A stretch of 32,048 bases of DNA from Nanobdellota archaeon (GTDB lineage Archaea > Nanobdellota > Nanobdellia > Woesearchaeales > JAHJBD01), in contig JAHJBD010000045.1 of NCBI GenBank assembly GCA_018813725.1, forward strand, positions 1-32,048. The letters are read 5' to 3'. The notes beneath the pieces were generated by a model. That model saw only the letters and a program-made list of their open reading frames with translations. It was not told the origin of the DNA and searched no databases. The number at the start of each line of letters is the position of its first letter. The stretch's first letter is position 1. The translations under genes were made by a program, and so were the position numbers. This document shows positions 1-28,266 of this stretch, piece after piece.

Positions 1-274
1 CAGCTTGTTCTATGCCAGTCTCTGTAAGTTCAGCAAAAGAGCATCGTCCCTGGAACATACCCTTTGCATCTTCTCTAACATTGACTTCTGATTGTCCATG
101 TCTTACAAAAAAGAACTGATGCGAGGTTGGGTATCTGACACAGGTAGAAGGTACTATATTTCCCATCATCGTGCAGAGCTGTTCAGTGCAATATTCCATA
201 AGGTCCAGGTCATATGTAAGCGTACCGCAATTGTAACAATCCTTGTCAACCCTTGGAGGAGCTATTCCTATCAT
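1..274 (-). CDS. Histidine phosphatase superfamily protein (PGAM/CobC-like), N-terminal part only; gene runs off the left edge
   Basis: Not in the ORF track because there is no stop in the window. Reverse-complement translation from the ATG at 274..272 gives MIGIAPPRVDKDCYNCGTLTYDLDLMEYCTEQLCTMMGNIVPSTCVRYPTSHQFFFVRHGQSEVNVREDAKGMFQGRCSFAELTETGIEQA... The pattern RHG-x5-N ... QG ... LTE.G..QA is the histidine phosphatase signature (RHG codons at 103..95). The ATG overlaps the TGA of the upstream radical SAM gene (ATGA at 274..271). An internal Met start (MMGNIV) is also possible. Confidence 0.75.
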   Translation of the reverse strand, partial: MIGIAPPRVDKDCYNCGTLTYDLDLMEYCTEQLCTMMGNIVPSTCVRYPTSHQFFFVRHGQSEVNVREDAKGMFQGRCSFAELTETGIEQA

Positions 275-1098
275 CTTTTCATCCTCCCAGCAATAACCTT
301 TTCACGTTCGGCAATATTCCTGTTAATCTCATCCAATATATTTTGGTTCCATGTTTCTGGTTTCAGGATATTGCCTGCTTGTACATAATCCTCTCCTACA
401 GTAGTGTACATATTTCCGTCTGGCATGATGAACAGGTATGCGATGTCGTGTACTGGAACGCTGTATCTGACTGGGATTACTCCTGCAAATCTTTCCACAG
501 TCTTTTGAGCGACAGTTTCGAATTCTTCATAATCCAACCTAAACTTCTCAGGGTGTCTTCCAATAGCCTGATAGTAGTTTAATTTCCAGGTGAATCTTGG
601 ATTATCGGCATATTTTTTCAGGACTGCGCCAATATCGTCAAGAATGTCTTTATTCTTTTTTGTCACAACAGTCAGTACCTGGAAACTAATATCTGGATAT
701 TTGGAGGTTATATCTAATGCTTGCAGCACATTGGCAAAATGTCCTGGCTTCCTTGCTTGAGCATTAGTCTCATCGTTATAACCATCTAAACTGAAAGAGG
801 TCTTGTCAACATATGGCAGTATCTCTTTATGTCTTTGTCCCAAAAGATTCGTGTTTGTGAAAAGAAAAGTGGTCAAACCATCTTGTTTGGCCCTGTATAG
901 CATATCAGGAAGCTTATCTTCCAATAGGGGTTCTCCGCCAGTGAATACCAACTGTTTGACTCCATTTTCTGTTACAGCATCAATCACATCAATAGGCATA
1001 TCCTTCTTGTAGTCTGGCATATTTGAACCCCAACAGACGCCACAGTTCATGTCACACTTTCTGGTGACAATGTAGTCAACGCTATTTGGAAAGCTCAT
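271..1098 (-). CDS. Radical SAM enzyme with a single 4Fe-4S cluster, viperin(RSAD2)-like motif order
   Basis: 275-aa ORF. It has CDMNCGVC (CxxxCxxC, ~1033..1059) and the FTGGEPLL SAM-binding motif. There are no other cysteines, so no SPASM/twitch auxiliary cluster. Its landmarks are collinear with viperin as I recall it: SVDYIVTRKC..NCGVC, GGEPLL, FSLDGYNDE, NPRFTWKLNYYQ, DYEEFE, AYLFIMPDGNMY. Both ends overlap neighbouring genes by ATGA. Radical SAM membership is near certain; the viperin-like subfamily call is a hypothesis (~0.45). Confidence 0.88.
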   Translation of the reverse strand: MSFPNSVDYIVTRKCDMNCGVCWGSNMPDYKKDMPIDVIDAVTENGVKQLVFTGGEPLLEDKLPDMLYRAKQDGLTTFLFTNTNLLGQRHKEILPYVDKTSFSLDGYNDETNAQARKPGHFANVLQALDITSKYPDISFQVLTVVTKKNKDILDDIGAVLKKYADNPRFTWKLNYYQAIGRHPEKFRLDYEEFETVAQKTVERFAGVIPVRYSVPVHDIAYLFIMPDGNMYTTVGEDYVQAGNILKPETWNQNILDEINRNIAEREKVIAGRMKR

Positions 1099-2099
1099 CT
1101 CCAGAAAAAAGTCCCTCCTTTCTTTAGTCCTTCATATCTGACCTTGTCTTTTGGATTCTTGTATCCTGGGATGTATACTGTCGGCTCAAATGTTAAGAAT
1201 TCAAGACCTGTTGGCCGGTTATTATACCCTATCAAAGTCATCGCAGTTTTTAGGTGATGCGCAAACCCTTCATATAAGGAATTGATGGACTCCGCTTCCA
1301 TAAGTTGACCTTTTTGCCTTCTCGTCTTTATTGCAAAGGCTTGGGCATCTACTATGTATATCCCTGCTAGTGCCAACCAGTCTGGATCATCAACAACCCG
1401 GCGTGGCATGCAGGGGTGTTCATATATTCTTTGCTCTCTTTGATTGATCCTGGCAAATCTTGTGTGGCTGTCTTGATAATTTGCAAGTTCTTCTGCTAAT
1501 TCATCTTTTGTTCTGTTAGACCCATCTGATAATCTTCTGGCAAAAACCATCGCCTCTCTTTGGCTTTGGACCAATCCATGCAGTGCGTTAATGATGTCTG
1601 GAAAGTATACACCGAATTTTGCTCCGTCAACTAATGCAATATATTTTGGCGGTTTGACAAAATGCCTGATGAAAGTGACTGAGCCGTTTGATGCTGTTAT
1701 CTGCAACCCGTCAACCGAATGCATAGGTCTATGGTGCGCGTCATATAATTGGTCTTCAGACTGTAGTATGAAGCTAGTCCTATGTCCAAAGTTGTTATAC
1801 GGTGACAGTAGGTCCACATAAACTGGTTTTTGTTCTGCTAAAAGGTGAAGGTAGAAGGGTACTTCTTTAGGCACATCCTGCATCACGTTAGATAATGGCC
1901 TGTCACCATCAACCAATAAAGCTAGTGGTTTTGGCTGTTTGCAGTCTGCTCTCCTGCCTCTGCCGCCGCATTGGATAACGATAGCAAAATCATCAGAACG
2001 CATCAATTGCTCATATGTGGATAGCGCTTCTGTGCTTATCGGCGGTGTCCTATTTGCTTGGATGCATCTTTCGATGAGCTGATCGAGAGTTTTTGTCAT
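1095..2099 (-). CDS. Putative nucleotidyltransferase (UDP-sugar pyrophosphorylase/UDPGP-like N-terminal loop); otherwise uncharacterised
   Basis: The ORF track gives 1095..2111 with a TTG start; the first ATG (MTKTLDQ...) is at 2099. IVIQCGGRGRRADCKQPKPLALLV (~1952..1975 encodes QCGGRGRR) matches the GGxGxR...PK(P/S)L pyrophosphorylase loop of sugar nucleotidyltransferases. Later FILQSED...ASNGS...YIALVDGAKF loosely follows the UDPGP order. Its stop overlaps the radical SAM start (ATGA at 1098..1095). The CDS is confident; the function is low to moderate. Confidence 0.6.
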   Translation of the reverse strand: MTKTLDQLIERCIQANRTPPISTEALSTYEQLMRSDDFAIVIQCGGRGRRADCKQPKPLALLVDGDRPLSNVMQDVPKEVPFYLHLLAEQKPVYVDLLSPYNNFGHRTSFILQSEDQLYDAHHRPMHSVDGLQITASNGSVTFIRHFVKPPKYIALVDGAKFGVYFPDIINALHGLVQSQREAMVFARRLSDGSNRTKDELAEELANYQDSHTRFARINQREQRIYEHPCMPRRVVDDPDWLALAGIYIVDAQAFAIKTRRQKGQLMEAESINSLYEGFAHHLKTAMTLIGYNNRPTGLEFLTFEPTVYIPGYKNPKDKVRYEGLKKGGTFFWR

Positions 2100-2152
2100 T
2101 GAATTCACCAAATCTACGATATATTACGCTAATTTAGCATATATATCTATTC

Positions 2153-2177
2153 GATATAATTGATATATTGATATATC
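2153..2177. repeat. Three tandem 8-bp GATATAWT units (GATATAAT-T-GATATATT-GATATATC) in a divergent promoter region; candidate operator
   Basis: Read directly: 2153..2160, 2162..2169 and 2170..2177. The last unit, GATATATC, is a perfect palindrome. A fourth copy, GATATATT, lies at 2118..2125, and ATATATATC lies at ~2139..2147. The array sits immediately upstream of the TTTAAATA box of the AbrB-PhoU gene. The 2118 copy doubles as the likely TATA box of the minus-strand operon. Confidence 0.5.
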
Positions 2178-2188
2178 ATTTAGAAAGG

Positions 2189-2218: not shown

Positions 2219-3136
2219 ATGAAAAGGAAGGTTATCAAGCAGGGGAATGGGACGCTTACTATGACCTTGCCAAAAAAGTGGGCAGATTCAGTGGGACTTA
2301 CCGAGAATTCAGAGCTTGACATAATTGAGCAAGGACATAGTATTCAAGTGACTAGTTCCTCTGCTCAGAAAGGAACACAGATTGAGATCTCATTAGACTC
2401 CAATAATCGTACTTACATCAGGCAGGTTTTAAATAATATCTACTTAACAGGTTATGATGAAGTAAATGTTATTGATGTAGAGCCAGGCAGCTTAAAGACC
2501 ATCCGTGAGGTTATAGAAGATTTGCTTGGGTATCAGATTATCCAGTATTCAAGGAATAGCTGTTTGATAAGGAACCTTTCTAAAGAGGATGATACTGAAT
2601 TTTCAGCTCTACTTCGAAGAATCTTCTTGTTAGTCAAATTGCAACTTGATCTTATGATAGAGGATTTTTCTGGCCAAAAATTAGATAATCATCAGCAATT
2701 ATTTGAGATTGGCAAGTCAATCCATAGGTTTGTTTATTACTGCAGAAGACTGTTGATCAAGACTAGGATGTTTTCTAATTACAAATCCACAAGAATGTAT
2801 CTATTGATAACTAGGTTATTAACAATATCTCATAGTGTTGAATATCTATATGATTCGTTATCAGGTAGTCCAGTCATATCTAAACAAGAGCTAGAGTATT
2901 GCAAGGATACTGCTGAATATTTTCAATTATTTTACAGTCTATTCTATCAGTTGAAACACAAGTCGATCTATAAATTATCAGAGGGTAAAGAAGATCTTTT
3001 AGATCAACGCTTGCTTAAATTGTTATCATCAAAGAGTTCCAATCATATCGTGATCCATTATTGTGCCCAGATAATCAGGGATATCGCTAGAAATGGAGGT
3101 ATTCTTTTTACTCTGAAGGACGAGCATCTTTCATAA
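2219..3136 (+). CDS. AbrB/SpoVT-domain DNA-binding regulator with PhoU-like helical C-terminal domain (archaeal PhoU-type regulator)
   Basis: The N-terminus MKRKVIKQGNGTLTMTLPKKWADSVGL...SELDIIEQGHSIQV has the swapped-hairpin AbrB/SpoVT pattern (RKVq.tGgs..vtLPKkW). The remaining ~230 aa is all-helical, as in archaeal AbrB-PhoU proteins. The 3' end overlaps the convergent kinase gene by 29 nt (3108..3136). Confidence 0.7.
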   Translation: MKRKVIKQGNGTLTMTLPKKWADSVGLTENSELDIIEQGHSIQVTSSSAQKGTQIEISLDSNNRTYIRQVLNNIYLTGYDEVNVIDVEPGSLKTIREVIEDLLGYQIIQYSRNSCLIRNLSKEDDTEFSALLRRIFLLVKLQLDLMIEDFSGQKLDNHQQLFEIGKSIHRFVYYCRRLLIKTRMFSNYKSTRMYLLITRLLTISHSVEYLYDSLSGSPVISKQELEYCKDTAEYFQLFYSLFYQLKHKSIYKLSEGKEDLLDQRLLKLLSSKSSNHIVIHYCAQIIRDIARNGGILFTLKDEHLS

Positions 3137-4907
3137 ATGCCCTAAAACCTTTTTTTAGATCTTCTGTGAATTCAAAAGCGCTATGATATCTGTCTTCTGG
3201 CTTGTATTGTAGGGTTTTATCAATTACCTTGGCAACTTCTGGGTGAACATGGCTATAATCTACAGTTACCTGTGAGAATTTATCAGAATCACTTACAATT
3301 GCAACTATCTCTGTTGAATCATCAGATATTGGGTGGTGTCCTGTGAGCATATGATATAAGATTGCTCCAACTGAATAAAGGTCTGAGGCAGGCGTTAATG
3401 CTTGTTCTTGGTTAAGCAATTCCGGGCTTGAGTATCTTCTAGAAGCATAACCTTTAACCTCATGTGAATCAGAAGATGTCAAGCCGAAATCAATCAGATA
3501 TGTGCCTTTAGGTCCAATTATAATATTATTCGGAGAAACGTCATTGTGAACATAACCTCTGCTATGTATACCCCCCAGGACCTCTAAAACATGTATAAAG
3601 TATTCTGCTACTGTAGCTATCGCGATGCTGGTTGGGTGTCCTGATCTTATAGATTCTAGATGGTCAGCTATAACCTTATCTAAGGATATGCCTTCTACAT
3701 ACTCATATTTATCACAATTGACTTTTTTATCCATGACTTTTATTGCTATGTCACCATAGAAATTAGGTACACCTTTTACACCAGTCAAATCGTGCATAAC
3801 AGAGAATTCTTTTTCAGAAATGTACGCCAGGCCTATCTCTGTCATCTGCCTCCTCCCAGATGGGCTGTCTGCTTCTTGTTTTGGCACTAGCATAACTTCA
3901 CAAATATTTTTTCCTTGTGTAGGAAGTTCTTTTCTTATCAGTATTGCTGTAAATGTGCTTCCGTCACCGATTTTCCTTTCAGTATTGTAGTCAGGAACAT
4001 ACATTGCAGCCAGCTGGACTAATTCCTGTTCATTGTTGCATTGTGCTTCAGAAATTAGTCGGTTTAGATTATCTAGGAAACCCTTATCGTGTGATATATC
4101 AGGTGGAAGTTGGTATATCTCCTTGAATAGATATTCAGTTACATAAGGGTGGTCTTGGCATTCCATTGTTATAGCTAGCCTTGTTGCAGAAGCCAAATAT
4201 TCTTTTACCTTAGGTATGTCGAATTCAGTTGGCATATCTGCTCTAAAGTAGAAACAACGATATTGTTCCGGTGATGTAGTCAGAAATATATCTACTATTT
4301 GCCTTGCAAAATCAAAATGATCCATCAATGCGGCAACATAATCAGTATTAATCTGGTCAAGCTTAATTCTTCTTGCATGTTTGTCTGAAGTATCGGCTAC
4401 TGTCCTAACAAACTGGACAACCCTCTTGTTAGCAAGATCATGCACTCTATTTTCAAGCATTTGTTCTAGACCGCGGTTTGTGTATAAGTGTTCTCTAGGA
4501 GATGTGCATATTATATGTATAAGCTCTTCAGCATAACCTTCAATACGCGCATGACTTCCATAGTATCTTTCATCTTGGTTGTCTAGTTCACCTAAAACAT
4601 ATTGCCTGAATTTAAATCCGTCTGGGACAGCATGTGGTAGGCCGTCTGGCCTAAACCAGTAGTTATAAGATTCTACAACAGCTTCCGGAAGGTCTCTTTG
4701 AGCATTATTGAATGCTTCTATTATAGCATTATCACTGCATTCTTGTGAGAGTACAGTAACTAACCTTTCTATGTTGTCTAATATTTGCTCTCTTTTATCT
4801 GGGTCAAGGTGAGCACCATCTAAAACTAAATGATTTATTGTCTCGTGGATAGGTGCCAGCTGTGCTGCCAGTGCATCGTATTCTAGGCTGTAGATTGTAT
4901 TGATCAT
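3108..4907 (-). CDS. Hanks-type (eukaryotic-like) Ser/Thr protein kinase, non-RD, with ~345-aa N-terminal domain of unknown function
   Basis: The C-terminal ~250 aa carries the full kinase motif set: IGDGSTFTA (Gly loop), VMLVPK (Lys), HNDVSPNN (catalytic loop, ~3531..3551), IDFGL (DFG, ~3483..3497), YSSPELL (APE-like), DLYSVGAILYHMLTG, and PEDRY (subdomain XI Arg). I place the start at the Met of MINTIYSLEY (4907..4905), whose ATG overlaps the TGA of the NACHT gene. The longer track ORF (to 5039) would overlap that gene by 136 nt. Confidence 0.85.
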   Translation of the reverse strand: MINTIYSLEYDALAAQLAPIHETINHLVLDGAHLDPDKREQILDNIERLVTVLSQECSDNAIIEAFNNAQRDLPEAVVESYNYWFRPDGLPHAVPDGFKFRQYVLGELDNQDERYYGSHARIEGYAEELIHIICTSPREHLYTNRGLEQMLENRVHDLANKRVVQFVRTVADTSDKHARRIKLDQINTDYVAALMDHFDFARQIVDIFLTTSPEQYRCFYFRADMPTEFDIPKVKEYLASATRLAITMECQDHPYVTEYLFKEIYQLPPDISHDKGFLDNLNRLISEAQCNNEQELVQLAAMYVPDYNTERKIGDGSTFTAILIRKELPTQGKNICEVMLVPKQEADSPSGRRQMTEIGLAYISEKEFSVMHDLTGVKGVPNFYGDIAIKVMDKKVNCDKYEYVEGISLDKVIADHLESIRSGHPTSIAIATVAEYFIHVLEVLGGIHSRGYVHNDVSPNNIIIGPKGTYLIDFGLTSSDSHEVKGYASRRYSSPELLNQEQALTPASDLYSVGAILYHMLTGHHPISDDSTEIVAIVSDSDKFSQVTVDYSHVHPEVAKVIDKTLQYKPEDRYHSAFEFTEDLKKGFRAFMKDARPSE

Positions 4908-7882
4908 ATCAACCTCTCTGGTGGGATCAAGCCTTGTGGTTTTAATCCTGCATGAGTTGCTCCCAAAGCTTCGTGGAATGTTCCAGAAGATCGATAACCA
5001 TAATTTGGATTCTTTGCGGCATAGTTTTGAGGCAGCCATTGAAGAGCATCATGGATGAACCTTTCAGGGTCTATGGCACTAAGAGTTCCTGCAAACTTCT
5101 GCAAGTGCGCATAACGTGTCATGGCTTCTACTACTAATGGATAAATCTCTGGGTCAACTGACCTGCCTCTTTCTCTTCTTCTTCTGCATACTTGTCCCAA
5201 ATAATCAGCTACCCTTGAAGTGTCACTAAATTTATCACTGGTCCTTGCGTAATGGTGCTTAAAATACTCATTTGCTTCCTTAATATAACTTTTTGCTTTA
5301 TCTACCAATCTTTCATCGTCAAATCTTGAAAGTAGCTTACAGATATGGCCAAAACAGTTATTTTCCATTTGAGAAAGATTCACTAGCACATCTGGCAGGC
5401 CTGAATTGGTTCTTGCCTCAAGGGAAGCCAGATTGTTCTGATCTTCAAAACGGTATAGTACACTACTTGCATATTTACCATCTGCTTTTATGTAATCAAC
5501 TAATGCCTTGTACGCAGATACACTATCCCATGTGACTATATGATGTAAGTCGCTTTCATTAAAATCTTCTGCATTCATTGCATCCAAAACTATTTTTGCT
5601 AAGCGAGGATCTTGAGAAGATGGGGCAACTGCTGCCCACCATACATCCCTCAAATTATTGATATGTCTTGCGACAAACGCTTCCCCTTCAAATATGGGCT
5701 CATCCGTAAACCAATAAGCCAGCTTATCCTCTATCTGAAAAATGAGCTCTCCAGATTCTGGTAAAGCTCTTCTTATAAAGCTTCTACTTTCTGCGTGCGA
5801 TGCTGATTTCATCGCTACTTCAACTGCTTTGGTAAGGTATGCTGGATCAGTGTGGCATGACTGATATAGAAAATCAAACCTGTCTGGTTGGTCTGTTCTT
5901 GTCACTGCTATTACTTCTGCTTCTATATTTTGGTTTCCCTGTTCAATTGCCTTGGTTAAAGCTTCTTTCTTTTGAATGTATGTCGGTTCAACTGTGGTCG
6001 GTTCAGGTTTTTTTACAGTGGTTGTATGGATACTTATGTCAAATATACTTTTTTCTCTACGTTTTTCAGATTCTTTATCGTGTCTTGCTTGAAGTGCTGC
6101 GTAACAAGGATGATCTTTATCAATATCCAAGAATAATAAGGAGTCCATCACACTGCTTACATGTTCTGGAGAACCAAAACGAGCAGTATGAGCTGTTTCG
6201 TACATGATCTTGGCTAAGGTATTGGCATCGTTACCTACCTGGTAAATGAAATTATCAATCACTTCTGGTTCATCAAACTTTCTATCTTCATTGGAGGGTA
6301 ATCCCAAAACAGATTTATGGCCATAGATAAAACTGACAACTTTCGGATTGTAGCCCATGGCCTGGAAAAGGCCAACCTTTCTGCGGGCTGGATCATTTGT
6401 GCCTGGCTTGTTTTCGGTAAATCTAATCCTGTTTAGCTCATCAATTATCTTCTTGCATATTGCTTCCCTTTGAGCGTATGGCTTTGTAGGTGCTGAATGT
6501 GTTAGCATATCACAAGCCATGAAGAAGTTTGAATTGAAAGGATTGTATGCTTCAGGATGTGAATACGAAATGCCCATAAAAACTTCTGCAAAACCATTAT
6601 TTTGGTGCATAGCGAAATATGGTTCAAGCATTGTTTCTATCAAGGCATCTAATTCTCTTGGTTGCAGTAATCCTGATAAGAAAATCATTGTCTGATCCCA
6701 TGCTGGAAGAAGCCCCCTATTTGGCCCATCTATCAGTTGAGTGCTGAACCAACGTGTTGCTGGTTCTCGGAAAGACACATAATCTTCCCAAACCTGTTGA
6801 GTTGTAATGTGACCCTCCCTCACCTCTTTTGCTATATGCCTTGCTGCAAAGTATTCTTGCAGTGTCCTATGCATAAACTGTATCCTGCTATTTGTGAATG
6901 TCACAAGGTTACTGCCCATCACTACAGGTAATACCTCTGAAAGGTATTCTCCATAGCTCTGTCTTAAATTTTCTAAGATTTTTGCTTCATTAGCAGGTGT
7001 ATCTGCTAATTGAGGGTCTGTGTGTAATTGGAATCCAATTTCTGCCATAACATCCAGAGCATCTTGTGACAATTTTCTGTTTTTGTCTATCTTTTCCCTA
7101 TCTGCAAACTCTTCTTCTACGATCTGGCGGTACAGGTGTGCAATATTTGTCACATTAAATGGCCTATGCTGCAGGAAGGCTCTTTCATATAATCTTGTTA
7201 CAAAACTTAGTAATAATGGATTTGTGCAGAAATCTAATAGGTTACTGTCTTGTTTAATTGTTTCATATAATCCTCTATAATCAAATGGCGACTGCTTGTA
7301 TTTTTCTTTTAAGAATCTTTCAATATCTCTGATCTTTGCTGGCTGGAGTACATATTCATCAAATCCGTTAAATCCAGTCTTGGTATTAGGTCTTGTTGAG
7401 ACCATAACTGGAAACCTTGCATTATTTATCTGTTCAATCAACCTTTGCTTTTCAAGAGCTACTTCGTCTAAACCGTCTAGAAAAACAGCAAACTTGCCTG
7501 TATCAAGCAGATGTGTTGTAACTTGGGCAAAATCAGGAAGCCTTGTTTGTCTTACGATAAACTCTTCTAGGGGTGAACCATCGTATTCAGATAATCTTAT
7601 ATAGATTGGCACTTTGCTCTCTTTTAAAGCAGCTTTCTGAAGGGCAACACTTTTACCTGATCCTGGTGGTCCAACTAATAATGTCCTTTGGGTTTGAATA
7701 TAACTGAGCGGCTGAATATGCTCATTTTTATTTCTAACTTCTAGGTCAAGAGAACAATCGCCTAGTGGAATAATCGTTGGCGCTACCCTACGAAGCCTAT
7801 CTTCTAATGTTGACCTAATTTGGTGTTCAACTTCAAATTCTGGAGTAGATACTCTGAGAAGTTCTGCATGGATTTTGCGCAA
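4904..7882 (-). CDS. NACHT-family STAND NTPase (NLR-like) with ~590-aa helical C-terminal region and no N-terminal effector domain
   Basis: Motifs in canonical NACHT order: Walker A LLVGPPGSGKS (~7651..7680), Walker B FAVFLDGLDEV, VMVSTRP, TNPLLLSF, and FMHRTLQEYFAA (winged-helix signature). The P-loop starts at about aa 70, so there is no room for a fused effector. The only canonical in-frame start upstream of the P-loop is the TTG at 7882. There is no in-frame ATG or GTG between the upstream stop (7930..7928) and the P-loop. Confidence 0.88.
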   Translation of the reverse strand: MRKIHAELLRVSTPEFEVEHQIRSTLEDRLRRVAPTIIPLGDCSLDLEVRNKNEHIQPLSYIQTQRTLLVGPPGSGKSVALQKAALKESKVPIYIRLSEYDGSPLEEFIVRQTRLPDFAQVTTHLLDTGKFAVFLDGLDEVALEKQRLIEQINNARFPVMVSTRPNTKTGFNGFDEYVLQPAKIRDIERFLKEKYKQSPFDYRGLYETIKQDSNLLDFCTNPLLLSFVTRLYERAFLQHRPFNVTNIAHLYRQIVEEEFADREKIDKNRKLSQDALDVMAEIGFQLHTDPQLADTPANEAKILENLRQSYGEYLSEVLPVVMGSNLVTFTNSRIQFMHRTLQEYFAARHIAKEVREGHITTQQVWEDYVSFREPATRWFSTQLIDGPNRGLLPAWDQTMIFLSGLLQPRELDALIETMLEPYFAMHQNNGFAEVFMGISYSHPEAYNPFNSNFFMACDMLTHSAPTKPYAQREAICKKIIDELNRIRFTENKPGTNDPARRKVGLFQAMGYNPKVVSFIYGHKSVLGLPSNEDRKFDEPEVIDNFIYQVGNDANTLAKIMYETAHTARFGSPEHVSSVMDSLLFLDIDKDHPCYAALQARHDKESEKRREKSIFDISIHTTTVKKPEPTTVEPTYIQKKEALTKAIEQGNQNIEAEVIAVTRTDQPDRFDFLYQSCHTDPAYLTKAVEVAMKSASHAESRSFIRRALPESGELIFQIEDKLAYWFTDEPIFEGEAFVARHINNLRDVWWAAVAPSSQDPRLAKIVLDAMNAEDFNESDLHHIVTWDSVSAYKALVDYIKADGKYASSVLYRFEDQNNLASLEARTNSGLPDVLVNLSQMENNCFGHICKLLSRFDDERLVDKAKSYIKEANEYFKHHYARTSDKFSDTSRVADYLGQVCRRRRERGRSVDPEIYPLVVEAMTRYAHLQKFAGTLSAIDPERFIHDALQWLPQNYAAKNPNYGYRSSGTFHEALGATHAGLKPQGLIPPERLI

Positions 7883-16485: not shown

Positions 16486-17568
16486 ATGATATATAACGCT
16501 AAAGGAGAACTGGTCACAGCTAACATGAAGGATTTTGAGCTGAATGTGAACGATTTTGTGGTCCGAATAGTGAACAAAGTTGGGCCTGAGATTGATTCTT
16601 GGCTATCAGGGACAAAATTCAAGGATTTCTCAGGATGGATAAGTGTCCTAATGAATGTATTATGGGCAGATGCAATCTACCGTGAGGTACCTAAGCTGAC
16701 TTTGGTCCTTGAGAAAGGGCTTCCAAAGGGATTTGGTGATATTTCTGATGCTGATGCTGTATGGAACTTCATTGAAAGTGGCAATGCAGCATATGTTGAT
16801 AAAAGGGAGATAGATGCTGGCCAATATATGATACATCTGATGATGGAATTGTTTAGGTATCCGGTGATAAATGTCAAGGTGTCGCGTATAATGCATCAGA
16901 TAGCACGGCTGCTGATCCATGAGATGACGAATATGCTTAATTATGAGCACCATAAGATTAAATCTCAGGTTAGGCACCAGAGCTACAGGCTTGAGGCGAA
17001 GATTAATAGGTTAAAGGCGCAGATAGATGCACAGATTTCAGTAGTTAGTCACATCAAGGAATTTAAGCGAAAAGTGTTAGAGATTACTCTACTTCTAAGA
17101 CGATTTATCTTTTTGTTTCAGGAAAGACTATATCTCGAGGGGATAACAGAGCTTGAAAATAACTTAGGCAATTTGCAATGTGATAAGCGGGATAGGGAAC
17201 ACATTTACAGGACTGCATTAGATGCAGCAGACCATTTTGTGCAAAGGCTTAAGCGAATACTTCATGATTTTTCCAGGATCGAGCCAAACAGTGTGGATAG
17301 ATTATTATCTGATCTTAAAGAGTTGTTGGCAGAAAGATCATATTTTTATATCATTGGGTTACATGTGTTCTATGAGATCTATATGTCTGGAAGGATGAGG
17401 GAGATCGAGAAGGGCTCTATCCGTGATGTGTTTAGGGTATATCTAAAGGCCTGTGTCAATCTTCAGCCCATAATTTGTATGCATGGGAATTCTGCAAAAT
17501 ATTCCTTTTCTGATATGATAGGTAAAATACATCAGGCAAGGAAAAAGATCAAATATCCTCAATCCTGA
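16486..17568 (+). CDS. Hypothetical protein (all-helical, central coiled coil), no recognisable family
   Basis: 360-aa ORF with its own TATA box at the canonical spacing. No motif that I recognise. The 3' end overlaps the convergent hom gene by 20 nt. Confidence 0.6.
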   Translation: MIYNAKGELVTANMKDFELNVNDFVVRIVNKVGPEIDSWLSGTKFKDFSGWISVLMNVLWADAIYREVPKLTLVLEKGLPKGFGDISDADAVWNFIESGNAAYVDKREIDAGQYMIHLMMELFRYPVINVKVSRIMHQIARLLIHEMTNMLNYEHHKIKSQVRHQSYRLEAKINRLKAQIDAQISVVSHIKEFKRKVLEITLLLRRFIFLFQERLYLEGITELENNLGNLQCDKRDREHIYRTALDAADHFVQRLKRILHDFSRIEPNSVDRLLSDLKELLAERSYFYIIGLHVFYEIYMSGRMREIEKGSIRDVFRVYLKACVNLQPIICMHGNSAKYSFSDMIGKIHQARKKIKYPQS

Positions 17569-18948: not shown

Positions 18949-20926
<1,978 letters not shown>

Positions 20927-20930
<4 letters not shown>

Positions 20931-21631
20931 ATGTGTTTCTCCCGTACTAATGTGCTTGCTTTGTATAAGCTTTCAAATGTTCCTGCATCTGACCAATAGC
21001 CATCAAGGATTTTTGCATCCATCTTTCCCAATTTAATATATGCGTTGTTTACGTCTGTAATCTCTAGTTCTCCCCTATGGCTTGGCTTAAGATTTCTTAT
21101 TATTTCAAATACTTTATTATCATATAGGTATAATCCGGTAACTGCCAAATTTGTTTTTGGTTCTTTTGGTTTTTCTTCTATCTCAATGACTTTATTGTTT
21201 GAATCAACTGTTGCTACACCAAACCTCTTGGCATTTTTGACTTCTTTAAGAAATATCCTTGCTCCTTCATGAAAATCACTAATGTCAAGCTTATCTTCAA
21301 AGATATTGTCTCCAAGAATAACACAGAGTTTTTTGTCATCAACAAAGTCCTCTGCTAGTCCTAAAGCATGAGCTATTCCCATGGCTTCATCCTGGATCTC
21401 ATAGCTTAATCTTACTCCAAATTCTTTTCCTGATCCGAGGATATTAACAAATGCGCCTGCATGCGGCCTTCCTGAGATTATCAGGATATCTTTTATGCCT
21501 GCATCAATCAATGTTTGTAGTGGGTAATAGATCATGGGCTTGTTGTATACTGGAAGAAGGTGCTTGTTTGTTACTCTGGTAATCGGCATAAGCCTGCTTC
21601 CTGTACCGCCTGCAAGAATTATTCCTTTCAT
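20927..21631 (-). CDS. rmlA: Glucose-1-phosphate thymidylyltransferase, short form (sugar nucleotidyltransferase)
   Basis: 234 aa with [39 protein letters not shown] overlaps at both ends. Confidence 0.8.
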
Positions 21632-22497
21632 TTTGTCTGGTGCCTCATTATCTTTATCCCCTCTTCAAATGTATGCATCAATATACCTTGCTTTTTTAGC
21701 TTTTCTATACTCAAACTGCTATCTTTTGGTCTTTTGGCTGGAAGGTTTAGGTCTTTCATCAAGATTGGCTTGATCAGGCATTTATTTAGGTTGAATTCTT
21801 CTGCAATCTTTATTGCCATATCGTACCTTGTCAATCTTTGAGCGCCAGCAACATGATATACGCCTTTGCAATCATTCTTTGTCAACAGATTAACTGCATC
21901 TGCTATATCATCTGTTAATGTTGGTGTACCATACTGATCAGTATAGGTTTTAATCTCTTTTCCTTGGCTTAGCGAATTGACCACCCAGTTAACATAGCTT
22001 CTTTCAGAGTTATCTCCATTGTAGCCATATAGGACAACTACCCTTAGGATAAGATAATCATCGCTTTTTTCTTTTAAAATATTCTCTGCCTTTAATTTAG
22101 TCAAAGCATAGTATCCTAATGGGTTTGGTGTATCATCTTCCTTGTACATGCCTTTTTCTCCATCAAAAATAAAGTCTGTTGAGAAATAGACTAGTTTGGC
22201 TTTGGTCTTATTGCATGCTTCTACAATACTATGCATCGGAGCTACATTTACCTTTTCTGCCAATTCCTTGTATGTCTCGCATAAATCAACATTTGTCATT
22301 CCTGCTGCGTGTATCACGATATTTGGTTTTACGTCTATTATTTTCTGGATATCCTGTATTTGTGTGATGTCTACCTTTGGCTCTTTACCGTGATAAAAAG
22401 GATAGACTTCATGATGTTCGGACAGGATTTTCACTAATTTTGTCCCAAGGAAGCCGCCAGCGCCCATTATTGTGATTTTAATGGTTTCCACCACCAA
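21628..22497 (-). CDS. rmlD: dTDP-4-dehydrorhamnose reductase
   Basis: 289 aa. ITIMGAGGFLG and STDFIFDG are present, along with a Y..TK catalytic motif. The start is TTG or GTG (22497/22494/22491) and overlaps the rmlB 3' end. The internal ATG at 22467 would delete the beta-1 strand. Confidence 0.8.
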   Translation of the reverse strand: MVVETIKITIMGAGGFLGTKLVKILSEHHEVYPFYHGKEPKVDITQIQDIQKIIDVKPNIVIHAAGMTNVDLCETYKELAEKVNVAPMHSIVEACNKTKAKLVYFSTDFIFDGEKGMYKEDDTPNPLGYYALTKLKAENILKEKSDDYLILRVVVLYGYNGDNSERSYVNWVVNSLSQGKEIKTYTDQYGTPTLTDDIADAVNLLTKNDCKGVYHVAGAQRLTRYDMAIKIAEEFNLNKCLIKPILMKDLNLPAKRPKDSSLSIEKLKKQGILMHTFEEGIKIMRHQTK

Positions 22498-23426
22498 TCA
22501 TTTTCTTTGTACCAGTTTATCTTGTGCTTTAACCCCTGCTCAAAATCTAATTTAGGTTTCCAGCCTAAGTCTTTCTGGATCTTGTTGAAGCTTATTGCAT
22601 ATCTTAGGTCGTGGCCTGGCCTGTCTTCTACAAACTCTATCATGTTTTCTGTTTCTCCCATCTGGCCAAGAATGAATTTGGTAATCTCTAAATTTGTCTT
22701 TTCACAACCGCCACCGATGCAGTAGGTTTCGCCGATAGTCCCTTTCTCCAAAATAAGTTGGATTGCCTTGCAGTGATCCTTTACATGCAGCCAGTCTCTA
22801 ATATTTTTTCCCTCACCATAAACCGGTACCGTCTTTTTTTGGATAAGGTTAGTGATAAACAATGGCATAAGTTTTTCTGGATGTTGGTATGGCCCGTAAT
22901 TGTTTGAGCAGTGTGAGATAGTGATTGGTAGATCATAGGTGTTGTGGTAGGCTCTGACTAAATGGTCAGATGCAGCTTTAGAAGCGCTGTAAGGTGACCT
23001 TGGGTTGTATGGGGTGTTTTCATCAAAAGGTTTATCATCAAATCCCAGTTCACCATATACTTCATCTGTTGAGATATGGTGGAACCTCCTTTTGTATTTT
23101 TTGGCAGCGTTAAGGAGAACCTGTGTGCCAAGCACATTTGTACGGATAAAATCAGAAGGGTTTGTTATGCTTCGGTCAACATGTGTTTCTGCTGCAAAGT
23201 GGACAATTGCGTCGACTTCCTTAATCAAAGGTTCAACAGTCTGTGCATCGCAGATGTCACCTTTAACAAATCTGTATCTATTTGTTTCTATGTCTTTAAG
23301 ATTATCTAGGTTACCTGCGTATGTCAACTTATCCAGATTAATAATCTCATAATCAGGGTTTTCAAGAATGTGCCTTATGAAGTTGCTTCCGATAAATCCG
23401 CATCCGCCTGTAACCAATAGTCTCAT
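22467..23426 (-). CDS. rmlB: dTDP-glucose 4,6-dehydratase
   Basis: 319 aa with LVTGGCGFIGSNF, ISTDEVYG, SPYSASKAASDHLV and CSNNYGPYQHPEKLMP. Confidence 0.92.
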   Translation of the reverse strand: MRLLVTGGCGFIGSNFIRHILENPDYEIINLDKLTYAGNLDNLKDIETNRYRFVKGDICDAQTVEPLIKEVDAIVHFAAETHVDRSITNPSDFIRTNVLGTQVLLNAAKKYKRRFHHISTDEVYGELGFDDKPFDENTPYNPRSPYSASKAASDHLVRAYHNTYDLPITISHCSNNYGPYQHPEKLMPLFITNLIQKKTVPVYGEGKNIRDWLHVKDHCKAIQLILEKGTIGETYCIGGGCEKTNLEITKFILGQMGETENMIEFVEDRPGHDLRYAISFNKIQKDLGWKPKLDFEQGLKHKINWYKENDWWWKPLKSQ

Positions 23427-23428
23427 TC

Positions 23429-23974
23429 TTATATGCTCTCTTTTATTTTAATGTCTTTAAAGTGTGGCAAATTCTTATCTCTCTCAGAAATTATCGGCTT
23501 ATCAATAGGCCATGATATGTTAATTGTTGGATCATTCCAGATAACACCTCGCTCAAGCTCTGGTGCATATTCTTTAGTTGCCTTATACAGAAATTCTGCA
23601 TCTTCAAGCACGCAAAAACCATGGGCAAATCCTGGAGGTATCCATAACATCTTTTTGTTATCTTCGGATAAGATTGCAGATACCCATTTTCCATATGTTG
23701 ATGATCCTTTCCTTATATCAACTGCAACATCAAATATCTTGCCTTTTATCACTCGAACCAGTTTCCCCTGTTCTTTTGGAGGCAGCTGGTAGTGTAAGCC
23801 TCTTATTACCCCTTTTGCTGACCTTGACTGGTTATCTTGAGTGAATTCGTATTTTATCCTTTGTTTTTCAAAAGCCTCTTTTTTGTAGCTTTCAAAGAAG
23901 TAACCTCTATTATCTACAAAAATCTTAGGTGTAATTAAAACTACGTCAGGTATATCTAGCTTTTTAAATATAAT
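23429..23974 (-). CDS. rmlC: dTDP-4-dehydrorhamnose 3,5-epimerase; full-length reading frame has no canonical start codon
   Basis: The track ORF (23429..23752) begins at an internal GTG. The same frame stays open up to the stop at 23980..23978. It encodes (P)IIFKKLDIPDVVLITPKIFVDNRGYFFESYKKEAFEKQRIKYEFTQDNQSRSAKGVIRGLHYQLPPKEQGKLVRVIKG..., the conserved RmlC N-terminal half including RG.F.E and RGLHYQ. The only start candidates are ATT (23974) and ATA (23971). A GGGGGAAG SD-like element lies ~10 nt upstream and a TTTTTATATATT box ~50 nt upstream. Confidence 0.8.
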   Translation of the reverse strand: MIFKKLDIPDVVLITPKIFVDNRGYFFESYKKEAFEKQRIKYEFTQDNQSRSAKGVIRGLHYQLPPKEQGKLVRVIKGKIFDVAVDIRKGSSTYGKWVSAILSEDNKKMLWIPPGFAHGFCVLEDAEFLYKATKEYAPELERGVIWNDPTINISWPIDKPIISERDKNLPHFKDIKIKESI

Positions 23975-24134
23975 TGGTTATCTTCCCCCTTGACAAAATG
24001 TTTATTTTCAATATATAAAAACTTTTGTTATTTAGAAATTCACCAAGGGCAATAAATCTTGATATATGGTGAATTTCTTAATCCGAAAAACTTTCCAATG
24101 AATATCTTGGCAAGGCAAAGTTTTGTTATTTTAG

Positions 24135-24157
24135 TAACAAAACCTATTTAAATATAC
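24135..24157 (+). promoter_or_regulatory. asd promoter: 23-mer TAACAAAACCTATTTAAATATAC (TATA core 24147..24154), shared with lysC
   Basis: 22 of 23 positions are identical to 15077..15099. GGTGG (24175..24179) lies 5 nt before the ATG at 24185. Confidence 0.6.
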
Positions 24158-24184
24158 TCTCTTGCCAATGGTTTGGTGGTATTA

Positions 24185-25270
24185 ATGAAAAAACTGAGAT
24201 GTGGTGTTTTAGCAGGAACTGGTATGGTTGGCCAGAAGTATATACAGCTTCTTGAAGATCATCCTTATTTTGAGGTTACATATGTTACAGCTTCAGAAAG
24301 GTCAGCTGGTAAGAAATATATCGATGCTGTAGAAGGCAGATGGCATATGCCAACTGAGATGCCTGAAAGTGTTAAGGATATTGTTGTTGAGAACATGGAT
24401 ACTCTTGATAAGGTCAAGGAATCTTGCGATTTTGTGTTCTCTGCTTTGGATTCAGGGCCAGCTAAAGAGTGGGAAGAGAAATATGCTGCAGCTGGGATCC
24501 CTGTTGTTTCAAATGCATCTGCACATAGGCACACACCTGATGTTCCCATGCTAATACCTGAGATAAATGCTGATCATCTTGATATTATTGCGCTACAACA
24601 GAAGAGTAGGGGTTGGGATAAAGGTTTTATTGTTGTAAAGCCTAATTGCTCGCTTCAGAGCTATATGACACCTTTGTATGCACTTCACAAAGAGTTTAAG
24701 ATCAAAAGGGCAATCATCACCACAATGCAGGCAGTGTCTGGTGCTGGACATCCTGGTGTGGCAAGCTTTGACATAATCGATAATATCATCCCTTATATCG
24801 GCGGAGAAGAAGAAAAGTCTGAAAAAGAGCCTTTGAAGATACTTGGCAAGATTGTTGATGGTAAGTTTGTCAATGACGATTCAATCAAGATATCTGCACA
24901 TTGCAACAGGGTTGGCACCATCGATGGCCATATGGCTTGCGTATCAGTTGAATTTGAGAAAAATCCAACCAAGGAGCAGATCCTTGCTGCATGGAAGGAG
25001 TTTAAGGCAGTGCCGCAGGAACTTGATCTTCCTCTTGCACCAAAGCAGCCAATCATATACCGTGATGAGCCTAACAGGCCGCAGACGCGTCTTGATAGGG
25101 ATGCAGACAAAGGCATGGCTTGTGTTGTTGGAAGATTACGGCCCTGTAATGTATTCCAATGGCGCTTTACAGCATTGTCGCATAATACAGTGAGAGGGGC
25201 TGCTGGTGGTGGTATACTTAATGCTGAGCTCCTCTATAAGAAGGGTTTTTTGACCGCAAAGCTTAAATAG
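24185..25270 (+). CDS. asd: Aspartate-semialdehyde dehydrogenase
   Basis: The track ORF starts at the TTG at 24173; the ATG at 24185 gives MKKLRCGVLAGTGMVGQKY. It has the active-site KPNCSLQ, and SGAGHPG is also present. Confidence 0.88.
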   Translation: MKKLRCGVLAGTGMVGQKYIQLLEDHPYFEVTYVTASERSAGKKYIDAVEGRWHMPTEMPESVKDIVVENMDTLDKVKESCDFVFSALDSGPAKEWEEKYAAAGIPVVSNASAHRHTPDVPMLIPEINADHLDIIALQQKSRGWDKGFIVVKPNCSLQSYMTPLYALHKEFKIKRAIITTMQAVSGAGHPGVASFDIIDNIIPYIGGEEEKSEKEPLKILGKIVDGKFVNDDSIKISAHCNRVGTIDGHMACVSVEFEKNPTKEQILAAWKEFKAVPQELDLPLAPKQPIIYRDEPNRPQTRLDRDADKGMACVVGRLRPCNVFQWRFTALSHNTVRGAAGGGILNAELLYKKGFLTAKLK

Positions 25271-25301
25271 TTGCCTTTTCCAGATATTTTTTGGGTTGGT
25301 A

Positions 25302-26039
25302 ATGCAAAAGATATGCTTTTTTTATAAGAGAGAGGTTCCTGATTTTGGAGCTGATTTCTTATATCTTAAATTGGGCAGAAGGGAAAGGATTGACAATTCA
25401 AATGATTACAATGTAATTTTTGAGGCAGATCTTCCTATAAATCTTTCTGAGTATAATGAGCATCTGATGGATTATTCTGGGCTATATGCTTTGCATATGA
25501 ATAAGCTTATCAATGAGAAGCATATGTTAATCATCCATTATGATACTATGATATTGGATAAAGAATGGTTAAAAAAGATTGAAAAAGCTGTGCGCAAGGA
25601 TTCAGTTGTATTCTGTGACAGGCCAGTGGATCGTGATATTACCTCAGAGGTATCGCTTTGGGTATACAAGAATATTGATAAAGCTTTCTTAAGATTTAAA
25701 GGCAAAAGTTTTCTTGATTGCATCAAGCAGAATAATGTATCTAATATGGTGCTTACAAGCCAATTTGCATGCAGTGCAGATACATTTAGCACTTTGATGG
25801 AATTTATGCTGCCTTTGTATGGATGTTTGGATGAATTACAGATGATTGGCTTTAAATTTGCTCACTTGCTGGAAAGGTCTCTCGGATTGTTTTTCTCAGC
25901 CCAAGGCTATGTTAAAGTGCCTGTAATTAGGGATAGTCAATCCACAAAGTATAGGAACGGCAGAAGAATCAAGCTTGATTTCCCTGTCTTGACAAGATGT
26001 ATTAAGGATAATGCATCCGCTTTCTCAGAAGTATTGTAA
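25302..26039 (+). CDS. Hypothetical protein; weak resemblance to DUF4422-type capsule/glycan-locus glycosyltransferase-like proteins
   Basis: 245 aa from the ATG at 25302 (the track uses the TTG at 25296). YSGLYALHMNKL...MLIIHYDTMIL and HLLERSLGLFF loosely recall the DUF4422 pattern. This is recollection-level similarity only. Confidence 0.45.
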   Translation: MQKICFFYKREVPDFGADFLYLKLGRRERIDNSNDYNVIFEADLPINLSEYNEHLMDYSGLYALHMNKLINEKHMLIIHYDTMILDKEWLKKIEKAVRKDSVVFCDRPVDRDITSEVSLWVYKNIDKAFLRFKGKSFLDCIKQNNVSNMVLTSQFACSADTFSTLMEFMLPLYGCLDELQMIGFKFAHLLERSLGLFFSAQGYVKVPVIRDSQSTKYRNGRRIKLDFPVLTRCIKDNASAFSEVL

Positions 26040-26040
26040 T

Positions 26041-26325
26041 CTATTTCTCAATATACTCTTGTTGTATGCGTTTTGCTTCGTTAAATATGCTTAAAAAAAT
26101 CTCTTCAACAAAGCTTTCTTCGAGCCCGTTTTCCCTAGCAACTTTTTTAAGCCTGTCCATGATCTGGATTTCCCTTTTTTCATCAAAAACTGGTATATTC
26201 TTTTCTTTTTTATAGTTGCCTATCTCTGGCATCAGACTCATTCTCTCCGCTAATGCTGTGATTATAACCATATCTATCCTATCTATATGTTTTCTAATCT
26301 TTTTTATATAATCTTCGTTGACCAT
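26041..26325 (-). CDS. Chorismate mutase, AroQ class (monofunctional)
   Basis: 94 aa. IRKHIDRIDMVIITALAERMSLMPEIGNYKKEKNIPVFDEKREIQIMDRL matches the AroQ helical-bundle pattern (R..ID..D..h..Ll..R......K......D..RE). A CTTTAAATAG box lies ~25 nt upstream. Confidence 0.8.
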   Translation of the reverse strand: MVNEDYIKKIRKHIDRIDMVIITALAERMSLMPEIGNYKKEKNIPVFDEKREIQIMDRLKKVARENGLEESFVEEIFLSIFNEAKRIQQEYIEK

Positions 26326-26357
26326 GTGAATAATGAAATGTAAGAACTATTTAAAGA

Positions 26358-27116
26358 TTATGCTTTTGGAGGATTTTCCTTTATAACTGGAGATTGGCAC
26401 AAGTTTCTTAGATGTTCAAGATACTCGTTCTTTGTTTCAGCATCTTTTAGACCGAAATAAGTTATTGTCTTTAGGTATTCGATTGGACTGCCTATGTCAC
26501 ATCTTTTTCCTTTAAGTGCCATATGCAGCAGATTTGCAGTTGCAGAAAGCTCTTTAGTGACATTAGTGACAACATGTGTGTCATCACCAAGGAAATACTT
26601 CTGTTTGTTTAGGACCTCAAATATTGTTGGGCCAAATATATATCTGCCAGAGGAGTAGATATGCAGATTTGTCTCATGAAACTTGTCAATAAGTTCTTGC
26701 AGCGGGTTACCCTCAATAATTATGTCTGATAATGCTACTATAAATGCTTCGCCTTTGAGCTTGCTTTGTAATTGATATATCTCGTACATCCATCCTTTTG
26801 GTTCTGGTTGGCTGATAAAATGTAGTGTGCAAGGTTTGTTAGCTAATCTAAGTTTCTGAATTGTGTCACGATGGCCAAAATTCTCAGTCAGGTGCTCCAA
26901 TTTGATGTCATGCTTAAAATAATCCTTAACTCCTTTTAGATATCTACCAGTGATGTAAATCTCAGTGATCCCAGCATTTGTTAGCTCTTTAATCTGGTAA
27001 TCAATTGCTGGTTTATTTATGATTGGAAGCATAACCTTGTTTGAAACCTTAGTATATGGGAACATACGGGAGCCTAGACCCGCTGATGGTATGACTCCTA
27101 TTTTTATCTTTGCCAT
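26358..27116 (-). CDS. Sugar-1-phosphate nucleotidyltransferase (UTP-glucose-1-phosphate uridylyltransferase-like)
   Basis: 252 aa. KIGVIPSAGLGSRMFPYTKVSNKVMLPIINKPAIDY is a GalU-type N-terminal loop. Confidence 0.7.
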   Translation of the reverse strand: MAKIKIGVIPSAGLGSRMFPYTKVSNKVMLPIINKPAIDYQIKELTNAGITEIYITGRYLKGVKDYFKHDIKLEHLTENFGHRDTIQKLRLANKPCTLHFISQPEPKGWMYEIYQLQSKLKGEAFIVALSDIIIEGNPLQELIDKFHETNLHIYSSGRYIFGPTIFEVLNKQKYFLGDDTHVVTNVTKELSATANLLHMALKGKRCDIGSPIEYLKTITYFGLKDAETKNEYLEHLRNLCQSPVIKENPPKA

Positions 27117-27204
27117 TTAGTTAAATTCAATATTAATACTATATAAATGTTTTGAAGTCAAATAAGCGATTATTTTAAAGCTAAAAATCCTATAATCCAC
27201 TGGA

Positions 27205-28164: not shown

Positions 28165-28266
28165 GGTATACAAATACCTTAGAATAATATCAGGTAAATA
28201 AACCTTTTGGACTTTTCTTTTATAAACTGTTGTATGATTGATAATATATTTTTAAGAAACGTATAG

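Follow-up and report, generated by a model that had tools for sequence, protein, structure and literature searches.

At the left end of a contig from a nanoarchaeal genome, we found a rare three-gene operon in which a viperin-like radical S-adenosylmethionine (SAM) enzyme, hereafter rSAM, is coupled to a UDPGP-like nucleotidyltransferase and a histidine phosphatase. The window analyzed here is the complete 32,048-bp contig (JAHJBD010000045.1, assembly GCA_018813725.1) of a Nanoarchaeota metagenome-assembled genome, representing a tiny symbiotic archaeon; the contig ends at base 1. The rSAM is the founding member of a small viperin-like sister family that is distinct from the viperins, and it should not be filed as a viperin. 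The family comes with partners not seen before and probably acts on a new class of substrate. The reading we favor, tentatively and with slightly less than even confidence, is that the operon encodes one repressor-controlled three-enzyme pathway that modifies a nucleoside diphosphate (NDP)-linked substrate rather than a free nucleoside triphosphate (NTP). The three enzyme genes are as follows.

2 to 274, minus strand: branch-1 (CobC/PGM-like) histidine phosphatase, N-terminal 91 amino acids, cut by the contig end (PF00300; RHG at residues 58-60)
271 to 1098, minus strand: single-cluster radical SAM enzyme, 275 amino acids (PF04055, AlphaFold2 model with Foldseek, hhalign, residue test)
1095 to 2111, minus strand: divergent UDPGP-superfamily nucleotidyltransferase, 334 or 338 amino acids (Foldseek, hhalign)

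An earlier note on this DNA had described three minus-strand genes coupled by ATGA stop/start overlaps, and direct inspection of the sequence reproduced both overlaps, at 1098..1095 and 274..271. The third gene is, as that note had it, an RHG histidine phosphatase; it belongs to the branch-1 family, and its open reading frame (ORF) runs off the contig end.

The rSAM has cysteines only at residues 15, 19 and 22 (CDMNCGVC), along with the motif FTGGEPLL. No cysteine lies outside the CxxxCxxC motif to bind a SPASM or twitch auxiliary cluster. Foldseek searches with its AlphaFold2 (AF2) model (predicted local distance difference test score, pLDDT, 90.6) returned mouse viperin with bound CTP (6q2p) as the top match, with an E-value of 1e-15 and template modeling (TM) scores of 0.75 and 0.71 on the two lengths. 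The top set consisted of 6q2p, 6q2q, 5vsl and 9dfn, with TM-scores of 0.70-0.76 on both lengths, and SuiB, SkfB, BlsE, DesII and MoaA matched the rSAM core only. An hhalign comparison with 11 viperins gave a probability of 99.8 over 275 columns, and the C-terminal 100 residues alone align in register with viperin (P 3.6e-4). The protein is thus a single-cluster partial barrel closed by a viperin-type C-terminal extension; the single cluster had been proposed from its three cysteines. The earlier claim that its landmarks follow the order of animal viperin also stands, as all six motif pairs are in register by profile-profile alignment. The viperin strings used for that comparison are genuine: a human RSAD2 sequence agreed with that of mouse viperin 5vsl from residue 49 to 361. 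On this whole-protein evidence (AF2 and Foldseek, full-length hhalign and the C-terminal alignment), viperin is the nearest known relative of the rSAM, although a distant one.

Family membership is another matter. In Pfam the rSAM matches only the generic PF04055. Its best NCBIfam model is NF038283, 'viperin family antiviral radical SAM protein', which it covers over model positions 3-260 of 281 with 71.2 bits, below the curated cut-off of 180, and it scores 83 bits (E 4e-24) on the PADLOC prokaryotic viperin (pVip) models. Because SPASM-type and other radical SAM proteins from unrelated loci reach 60-78 bits on NF038283 through the common N-terminal core, we discarded the viperin hidden Markov model (HMM) bit score as evidence. 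A purpose-built HMM from 11 viperins (human, mouse, Nematostella, Trichoderma and seven NCBI-annotated prokaryotic viperins from plasmids) gave 312-396 bits for true viperins, 32-97 for the rSAM family and 19-76 for generic radical SAM proteins. The viperin-like reading of the earlier note therefore survives as the best full-length structural match, but not as membership in the viperin family, given 71 against 180 bits and the residue replacements described below. We also rejected assignment of the rSAM to SPASM-type maturases of RiPPs (peptides made by ribosomes and modified after translation), to MoaA, to the NrdG/PFL activases and to QueE, for which auxiliary cysteines, partners or scores are lacking. 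On the MoaA model, it scores 44 bits against a curated 284 and has no extra cysteines.

To compare active sites, we took the positions that do not vary among 10 or more of the 11 viperins and located them in the 14 members of the rSAM family, using mouse numbering. The family keeps the cluster cysteines, GGEP, N158, S180, D182, R194, N229, W246-K247, F277, Y302 and R347, the last in 10 of the 14 members. Replaced are N77 (by D), H79 (I), N122 (V), S183 (G), K220 (Q, in 13/14), N222 (L), E293 (Y) and M298 (H). Eight residues shared by viperins from bacteria to human are accordingly split: R194, K247, Y302 and R347 are conserved, but N77, H79, K220 and N222 are replaced in 10-13 of the 14 members. 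By the 6Q2P and MoaA structures, these four probably surround the terminal (gamma) phosphate of the NTP, and Y302 is the proposed catalytic tyrosine of viperin. Judged from the alignment, the pocket appears remodeled and less basic, with a partly conserved phosphate/tyrosine site, and the loss of the four residues fits a substrate that carries a neutral group in place of the gamma-phosphate. Such changes are compatible with the different, NDP-linked substrate class that had been suggested at the outset. Since the rSAM lies outside the viperin family and has lost N77, H79, K220 and N222, production of chain-terminating 3'-deoxy-3',4'-didehydro-NTPs (ddhNTPs), which the earlier note associated with prokaryotic viperins, is not implied for it.

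The first gene of the operon, annotated by NCBI as 'hypothetical protein KJ601_01835', starts at TTG 2111 (338 amino acids) or at ATG 2099 (334 amino acids, NCBI's choice). It has no match in Pfam, NCBIfam or PADLOC, and the 17 family members searched matched nothing in Pfam except NTP_transf_3, weakly, falling short of the PF01704 gathering threshold. The family is tiny: a search of 1.84 billion clusters gave 26 representatives at E<1e-10. Its UDPGP-like nature nevertheless emerges from structure and remote homology. Foldseek with the AF2 model (pLDDT 89.5) placed UAP1/AGX1/UGPase, the UDP-GlcNAc and UDP-glucose pyrophosphorylases, at the top (E 4e-13, query TM-score 0.65); the most remote profile matches are PF01704 UDPGP proteins; and hhalign against PF01704 members gave a probability of 99.4 over 267 columns. 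In that alignment all the motifs line up, namely a GGxGxR..PK loop, Gln, NG, Asp, Glu and a C-terminal Lys, which in the window protein correspond to QCGGRGRR...PKP, Q113, N138-G139, D158, E227 and K314. The pyrophosphorylase loop reported by the earlier note is present, but its spacer is five residues (GGRGRR-ADCKQ-PKPL) rather than six. The N-terminal motif matches UAP1 and IspD, and a family-specific insert of about 25 amino acids carries conserved E204, R214 and R217. On sequence and model, then, the protein is a minimal and divergent nucleotidyltransferase of the UDPGP superfamily in which the loop is rich in Arg, and with its UDPGP fold and conserved catalytic motifs it looks active.

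The phosphatase fragment in the window combines the RHG motif with a PF00300 (His_Phos_1) match at E 0.0024. Full-length homologues of 195-231 amino acids match PF00300 and score 88 bits on TIGR03162 (alpha-ribazole phosphatase, CobC), where the cut-off is 163, so they are not CobC equivalogs. The phosphatase is predicted to be CobC-like, and the closest model acts on a nucleotide-type substrate, alpha-ribazole-5'-phosphate. The homologues all begin 3-8 residues before RHG. Only in this genome are residues 1-54 (112-274, minus strand) a Cys-rich extension (CYNCG-x12-C-x4-C, plus C45), which may form a small zinc ribbon. An alternative start at Met36/37 may be used, although a GGGAGG Shine-Dalgarno-like site 9 nt upstream favors the ATGA start.

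We compared the operon with homologue loci (L001-L087) and proteins (P0001 and so on). The three genes are linked in at least seven independent loci: the window, L001/L002, L003, L004/L005, L010 (on the same contig as L012), L011 and the contig of P0021. The order is either transferase-rSAM-phosphatase or phosphatase-transferase-rSAM. In L055 the transferase adjoins the rSAM, and P0012 and P0020 both have a longest contig of 3329 bp, which suggests a further linked pair. Gene fusions also join the partners: phosphatase with transferase (P0045), two transferase copies with phosphatase (P0034) and two transferase copies (P0035). The gene-neighborhood conservation that the earlier note proposed to test is thus present. 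The hosts are DPANN archaea (Nanoarchaeota and Woesearchaeota) and some bacteria. Searches of plasmids, phages and viral contigs with the rSAM gave no member of the family; all that they returned were generic radical SAM proteins, at no more than 31% identity over alignments of substantial length. In the literature searched, neither the trio architecture nor the transferase family is described, in agreement with the earlier statement that no characterized three-gene system of this kind is known.

In none of the trio loci examined is a nucleotide or deoxynucleoside kinase linked to the rSAM, whereas the true pVips compared here do show linkage to such a kinase. The thymidylate kinase of the window (29236-29832) lies 29 kb from the operon. 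As to whether the trio sits inside a recognizable glycan or cofactor locus, it lies outside any classical one, but the surroundings are not free of surface functions: in Woesearchaeota-type loci, the same regulon encodes membrane proteins and lipoproteins, LA_2272-repeat surface proteins and giant GH113/GH5/NosD proteins, and L086 holds a sugar-1-phosphate variant. That variant regulon (L086 6621-14326) comprises an AbrB-like regulator, the transferase, and membrane, LA_2272-repeat and Lrp-like proteins, without rSAM or phosphatase; a PF00483 sugar-1-phosphate nucleotidyltransferase and a class II fructose-bisphosphate aldolase replace these two. In L008/L009 (11775-17002), a transferase-phosphatase pair stands beside TIR-domain, STALD (SLOG) and DUF4062-NACHT-TPR proteins, with a RelA/SpoT-TPR protein upstream, in a defense-island-like setting. 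L003 (7345-8007) and L055 (2413-3264) encode homologous in-operon lipoproteins of 220-283 amino acids. Their C-terminal residue is aromatic, as is typical in outer-membrane beta-barrels, and this suggests that the two loci are bacterial. Looking for a common extra partner among the secreted proteins of the operons, we found only pairwise relationships.

The strongest argument that the three activities share one nucleotide-linked pathway comes from a different gene architecture. In Planctomycetia and Omnitrophota, the same rSAM domain (39-48% identity) forms part of unbroken ORFs that measure from 1,700 to more than 4,400 codons, at the following loci.

L014, 2-5194; L016, 2-9718; L017, 2-13420; L018, 2-13129; L019, 2-9577; L020, 9404-16057; L054; L058; L060; L061: giant ORFs with an embedded rSAM domain

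Immediately upstream of the rSAM domain in five giant ORFs is a CxxC/HxHxHxx domain that scores 24.0 bits on DUF4922, a borderline value against the cut-off of 23.6, and that has no sequence match in the PDB. By its Pfam clan, the DUF4922-type domain is probably HIT/GalT-like. Of the three giant ORFs searched with Pfam, L018 and L014 have an HD phosphohydrolase domain after the rSAM domain, and L020 has a GNAT domain with no HD match. L018 also carries ARMT1/DUF89 phosphatase and LigT domains, and a GGKGTR nucleotidyltransferase motif with hexapeptide repeats (GlmU-like) is visible in it. By analogy, the giant ORFs are a probable non-homologous replay of the transferase-rSAM-phosphohydrolase order. 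L018 has in addition a second, degenerate rSAM-like copy at residues 241-474. On a separate Planctomycetia contig (L021 1-18700), about 16 radical SAM paralogues follow one another on the same strand; NCBIfam was run on two of them, and both are SPASM/NirJ-like.

The operon is transcribed away from a regulatory gene, beyond which lie a protein kinase and a STAND-type NTPase.

2112 to 2218, no strand: divergent promoter/operator region (inverted repeats, conserved element, 17-mer)
2219 to 3136, plus strand: AbrB-like transcription regulator, 305 amino acids (PF04014; homologues in the same position)
3108 to 4907, minus strand: Ser/Thr protein kinase (PF00069, E 7e-23; ATGA at 4907-4904)
4904 to 7882, minus strand: STAND-type P-loop NTPase, 992 amino acids (weak NACHT, nSTAND5 and NLRC4_HD2 matches)

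The regulator consists of an N-terminal AbrB/MazE/SpoVT DNA-binding domain (PF04014) and an uncharacterized domain of about 250 amino acids, for which a PDB profile search gave nothing but the AbrB fold, at E 0.2. The regulator has homologues at the equivalent place in L003, L010, L011, L013, L086 and L087, and its first 21 residues are near-invariant. The operator core (about 2130-2185) contains overlapping inverted repeats, the 17-mer ATATATCAATTATATCG (2152-2168, minus strand) and a TATA-like box, TTTAAATA, near the regulator gene. An element of about 50 nt, ATATATCAWTTATATCG-N4-GATATATATG plus the TTTAAATA box, is near-identical in the window (2130-2185), L011 (5540-5590) and L010 (5540-5590), and partly present in L003 (4745-4790), in loci whose proteins are only 25-45% identical. 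Against an expectation of 0.02, the window holds the 17-mer ATATATCAWTTATATCG once, and 4 of the 85 loci scanned have it (L003, L010, L011 and L012, the last on the contig of L010), always in the same intergenic position. On its conservation, the element is a probable operator of the AbrB-like regulator together with two promoters.

The 3' end of the regulator gene overlaps the kinase gene by 29 nt, and L011 has the same order with an overlap of about 28 nt. The kinase domain is C-terminal, after a helical region of about 400 amino acids; the protein matches the PADLOC PD-T4-6 and mad6 kinase models at E 1e-29 to 1e-30 and has homologues in L011 and L003. The STAND stop and the kinase start overlap as ATGA at 4907-4904, downstream of a GAGAGG, at Met45 of the long ORF. 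Because of this overlap, the kinase is probably 599 rather than 643 amino acids long and the two genes are translationally coupled. The STAND NTPase is 33% identical over 461 amino acids to its L011 equivalent, and weaker relatives flank L086 and L087. Elsewhere the window carries housekeeping genes, among them those of amino-acid metabolism, class I LysRS, genes for rhamnose and GDP-mannose, and both thymidylate synthase and kinase. A sugar-nucleotide cluster at 18949-28173, 17-26 kb from the operon, has RmlA-, RmlB- and RmlD-like genes, GDP-mannose 4,6-dehydratase, several epimerases and a second NTP_transferase. The ORFs at 16486-17568 and 25296-26039 have no Pfam match.

From the protein folds and families, the co-conservation and fusions, and the regulator-operator unit, all of which are shown, a working scheme can be assembled, in which the order of the steps, the NDP-X substrate and the chemistry are what we infer. 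A dedicated AbrB-like repressor would bind the conserved operator in the divergent promoter. The UDPGP-type enzyme would join an NTP to a phosphorylated acceptor, X-P, giving NDP-X and pyrophosphate. The rSAM would then cleave SAM at its single [4Fe-4S] cluster and carry out viperin-type radical chemistry on NDP-X, possibly hydrogen abstraction on the ribose or on the attached sugar followed by dehydration, with participation of the conserved Tyr. Finally, the CobC-like phosphatase could strip a leftover phosphomonoester, either from the product or from the acceptor before activation. Candidate biological roles are an antagonistic or antiviral nucleotide analogue, or a surface or host-interaction function. 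The neighbors point opposite ways here, with defense-type genes on one side (STAND and kinase in the window; TIR, SLOG and NACHT at L008) and surface-protein and glycosidase genes in Woesearchaeota-type loci on the other.

Several observations weigh against the scheme. The transferase occurs without the rSAM in L008/L009, where the phosphatase is present, and in L086, and in one organism the rSAM is unlinked, standing alone on another contig of the same two L008/L009 samples with similar G+C. The rSAM family is about equally distant in sequence from viperins and from SPASM-type radical SAM enzymes, so that viperin-type chemistry is not guaranteed; and the gamma-phosphate-pocket role of N77, H79, K220 and N222 is putative. 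The role of the phosphatase is the weakest step.

If the rSAM were instead a canonical pVip defense gene, it would convert CTP, UTP or GTP to a ddhNTP, with the transferase and phosphatase replacing the nucleotide kinase as accessories for substrate supply or self-protection. The only defense hits for the rSAM are indeed to PADLOC pVip, viperin is its top fold match, and Y302, K247, R194 and R347 are retained; yet 71 bits against a cut-off of 180 is a score that non-viperin radical SAM proteins reach (60-78), and the family as a whole has replaced four residues on which 11 viperins, from human to bacteria, agree. Context is similarly divided. A STAND NTPase and a kinase like those of defense systems adjoin the operon, the L008/L009 transferase-phosphatase pair lies among TIR, STALD/SLOG and NACHT genes, and the distribution over archaea and bacteria is patchy. 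Phosphatase partners of pVips exist too, as a genuine pVip on a Thiodictyon plasmid (L048 586-2343) lies directly downstream of an inositol-monophosphatase-family gene. However, the operon has no nucleotide kinase, the phosphatase would oppose accumulation of a triphosphate, and no family member was found on the viral contigs, phages and plasmids searched. We regard this explanation as distinctly unlikely. Somewhat less doubtful, although unlikely as well, is that the operon tailors sugar nucleotides destined for the cell surface. In this model, a sugar-1-phosphate would be activated by the UDPGP-like enzyme, its sugar would undergo DesII/BlsE-type deamination, dehydration or decarboxylation by the rSAM, and the product would serve to glycosylate surface proteins for host attachment. 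DesII, which acts on an NDP-sugar, and BlsE, which acts on a nucleoside-sugar, are among the close structural matches, and the surface-protein content of the Woesearchaeota-type regulon, the substitution of a PF00483 nucleotidyltransferase and class II aldolase in L086, and a GT4 glycosyltransferase and epimerase near L004 all fit. The rhamnose and GDP-mannose genes of the window (18.9-28.2 kb) would fit as well, but they are 17 kb off, beyond housekeeping genes. Moreover, no glycosyltransferase, flippase or oligosaccharyltransferase is consistently linked, the retained residues belong to the nucleotide site of viperin, and the phosphatase would have no obvious role.

Two further explanations start from other radical SAM chemistries. 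After the manner of tunicamycin (TunB/TunG) or polyoxin (PolH/PolJ) biosynthesis, the operon would make a high-carbon or rearranged nucleoside, with the rSAM forming a C-C bond at a nucleoside 5' carbon and the phosphatase supplying or releasing the nucleoside. Tunicaminyluracil clusters carry both a radical SAM enzyme and a histidine phosphatase, and the operon lipoprotein genes could serve export. With dehydratase, epimerase and enolpyruvyl-transferase partners absent, and with a weak BlsE match as the only nucleoside-antibiotic radical SAM enzyme among the best 25 of 60 NCBIfam matches, such a product seems highly improbable. Scarcely credible is a role of the rSAM in maturing a peptide or cofactor, whether as a SkfB/SPASM-like enzyme, a MoaA-like enzyme or an activase. 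The family profile does find the SkfB core as its best PDB sequence match (85 bits, against 65 for viperins), and many SPASM-family HMMs match the N-terminal core; but such matches cover the shared core only, whereas viperin aligns over the full length, and the rSAM has neither auxiliary-cluster cysteines nor an RRE domain. No conserved precursor peptide or glycyl-radical partner is present in any locus examined.

The NDP-linked pathway that we favor also admits a bolder, improbable extension, in which all 7.9 kb of the block would serve DPANN archaea as an inducible module of innate immunity. The STAND sensor and its coupled Ser/Thr kinase would relieve the AbrB-like repressor at the conserved operator, switching on a three-enzyme factory for a new class of nucleotide directed against viruses or the host, such as a 3',4'-didehydro-NDP-sugar or its dephosphorylated nucleoside conjugate. 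If true, prokaryotes would have in this module a counterpart to interferon-induced viperin that works by different chemistry. Few immune enzymes are common to bacteria and humans, viperin among them, and to our knowledge a single chemistry, NTP to ddhNTP, is known for the viperin family so far. The linkage and fusion of a viperin-like enzyme to a nucleotidyl-transfer enzyme and a phosphohydrolase would point to a second product class from the viperin scaffold. Should the product be a new nucleotide analogue, it may offer an antiviral or antibiotic lead; should it feed surface glycans, sugar-nucleotide metabolism would still gain a new radical SAM step through the operon. We know of almost no regulation or defense biology in DPANN archaea, and the regulator-operator pair provides a directly testable switch.

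Compared with viperin/RSAD2 and the pVips (NF038283), the rSAM shares the single CxxxCxxC cluster, GGEP, the partial barrel with C-terminal extension, a length of about 275-300 amino acids, the fold (TM 0.71-0.76), R194, W246-K247, Y302, R347 and six motif pairs in register. It differs in its identity of about 20%, in scoring below the curated HMM cut-off, and in several residues: DxI takes the place of the NxH motif ahead of the cluster, K220 has become Q and N222 has become L, with further family-wide changes at S183, E293 and M298. pVips often partner with a nucleotide kinase, and the rSAM with a UDPGP-like transferase and a histidine phosphatase. DesII and BlsE are close structural neighbors whose NDP- or nucleoside-linked substrate class is the one proposed for the rSAM, but their TM-scores and coverage are lower than those of viperin, and the rSAM does not belong to their families at the sequence level. 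With the UDP-sugar pyrophosphorylases (PF01704: UAP1/AGX1, UGPase, USP), the transferase shares the fold, the loop, the base-binding Gln, NG, the metal/phosphate Asp, the Glu and the catalytic Lys. Those enzymes are 450-520 amino acids long, whereas the transferase family, at about 300-345, lacks their N- and C-terminal domains and is set apart by the Arg-rich GGRGRR loop, the E204/R214/R217 insert and sub-threshold Pfam and NCBIfam scores. The phosphatase shares RHG with the CobC/dPGM-type enzymes (PF00300), and TIGR03162 is the best match for its homologues; it differs from CobC in its sub-cut-off score (88 against 163), its context without cobamide genes and, in the window copy, the Cys-rich extension.

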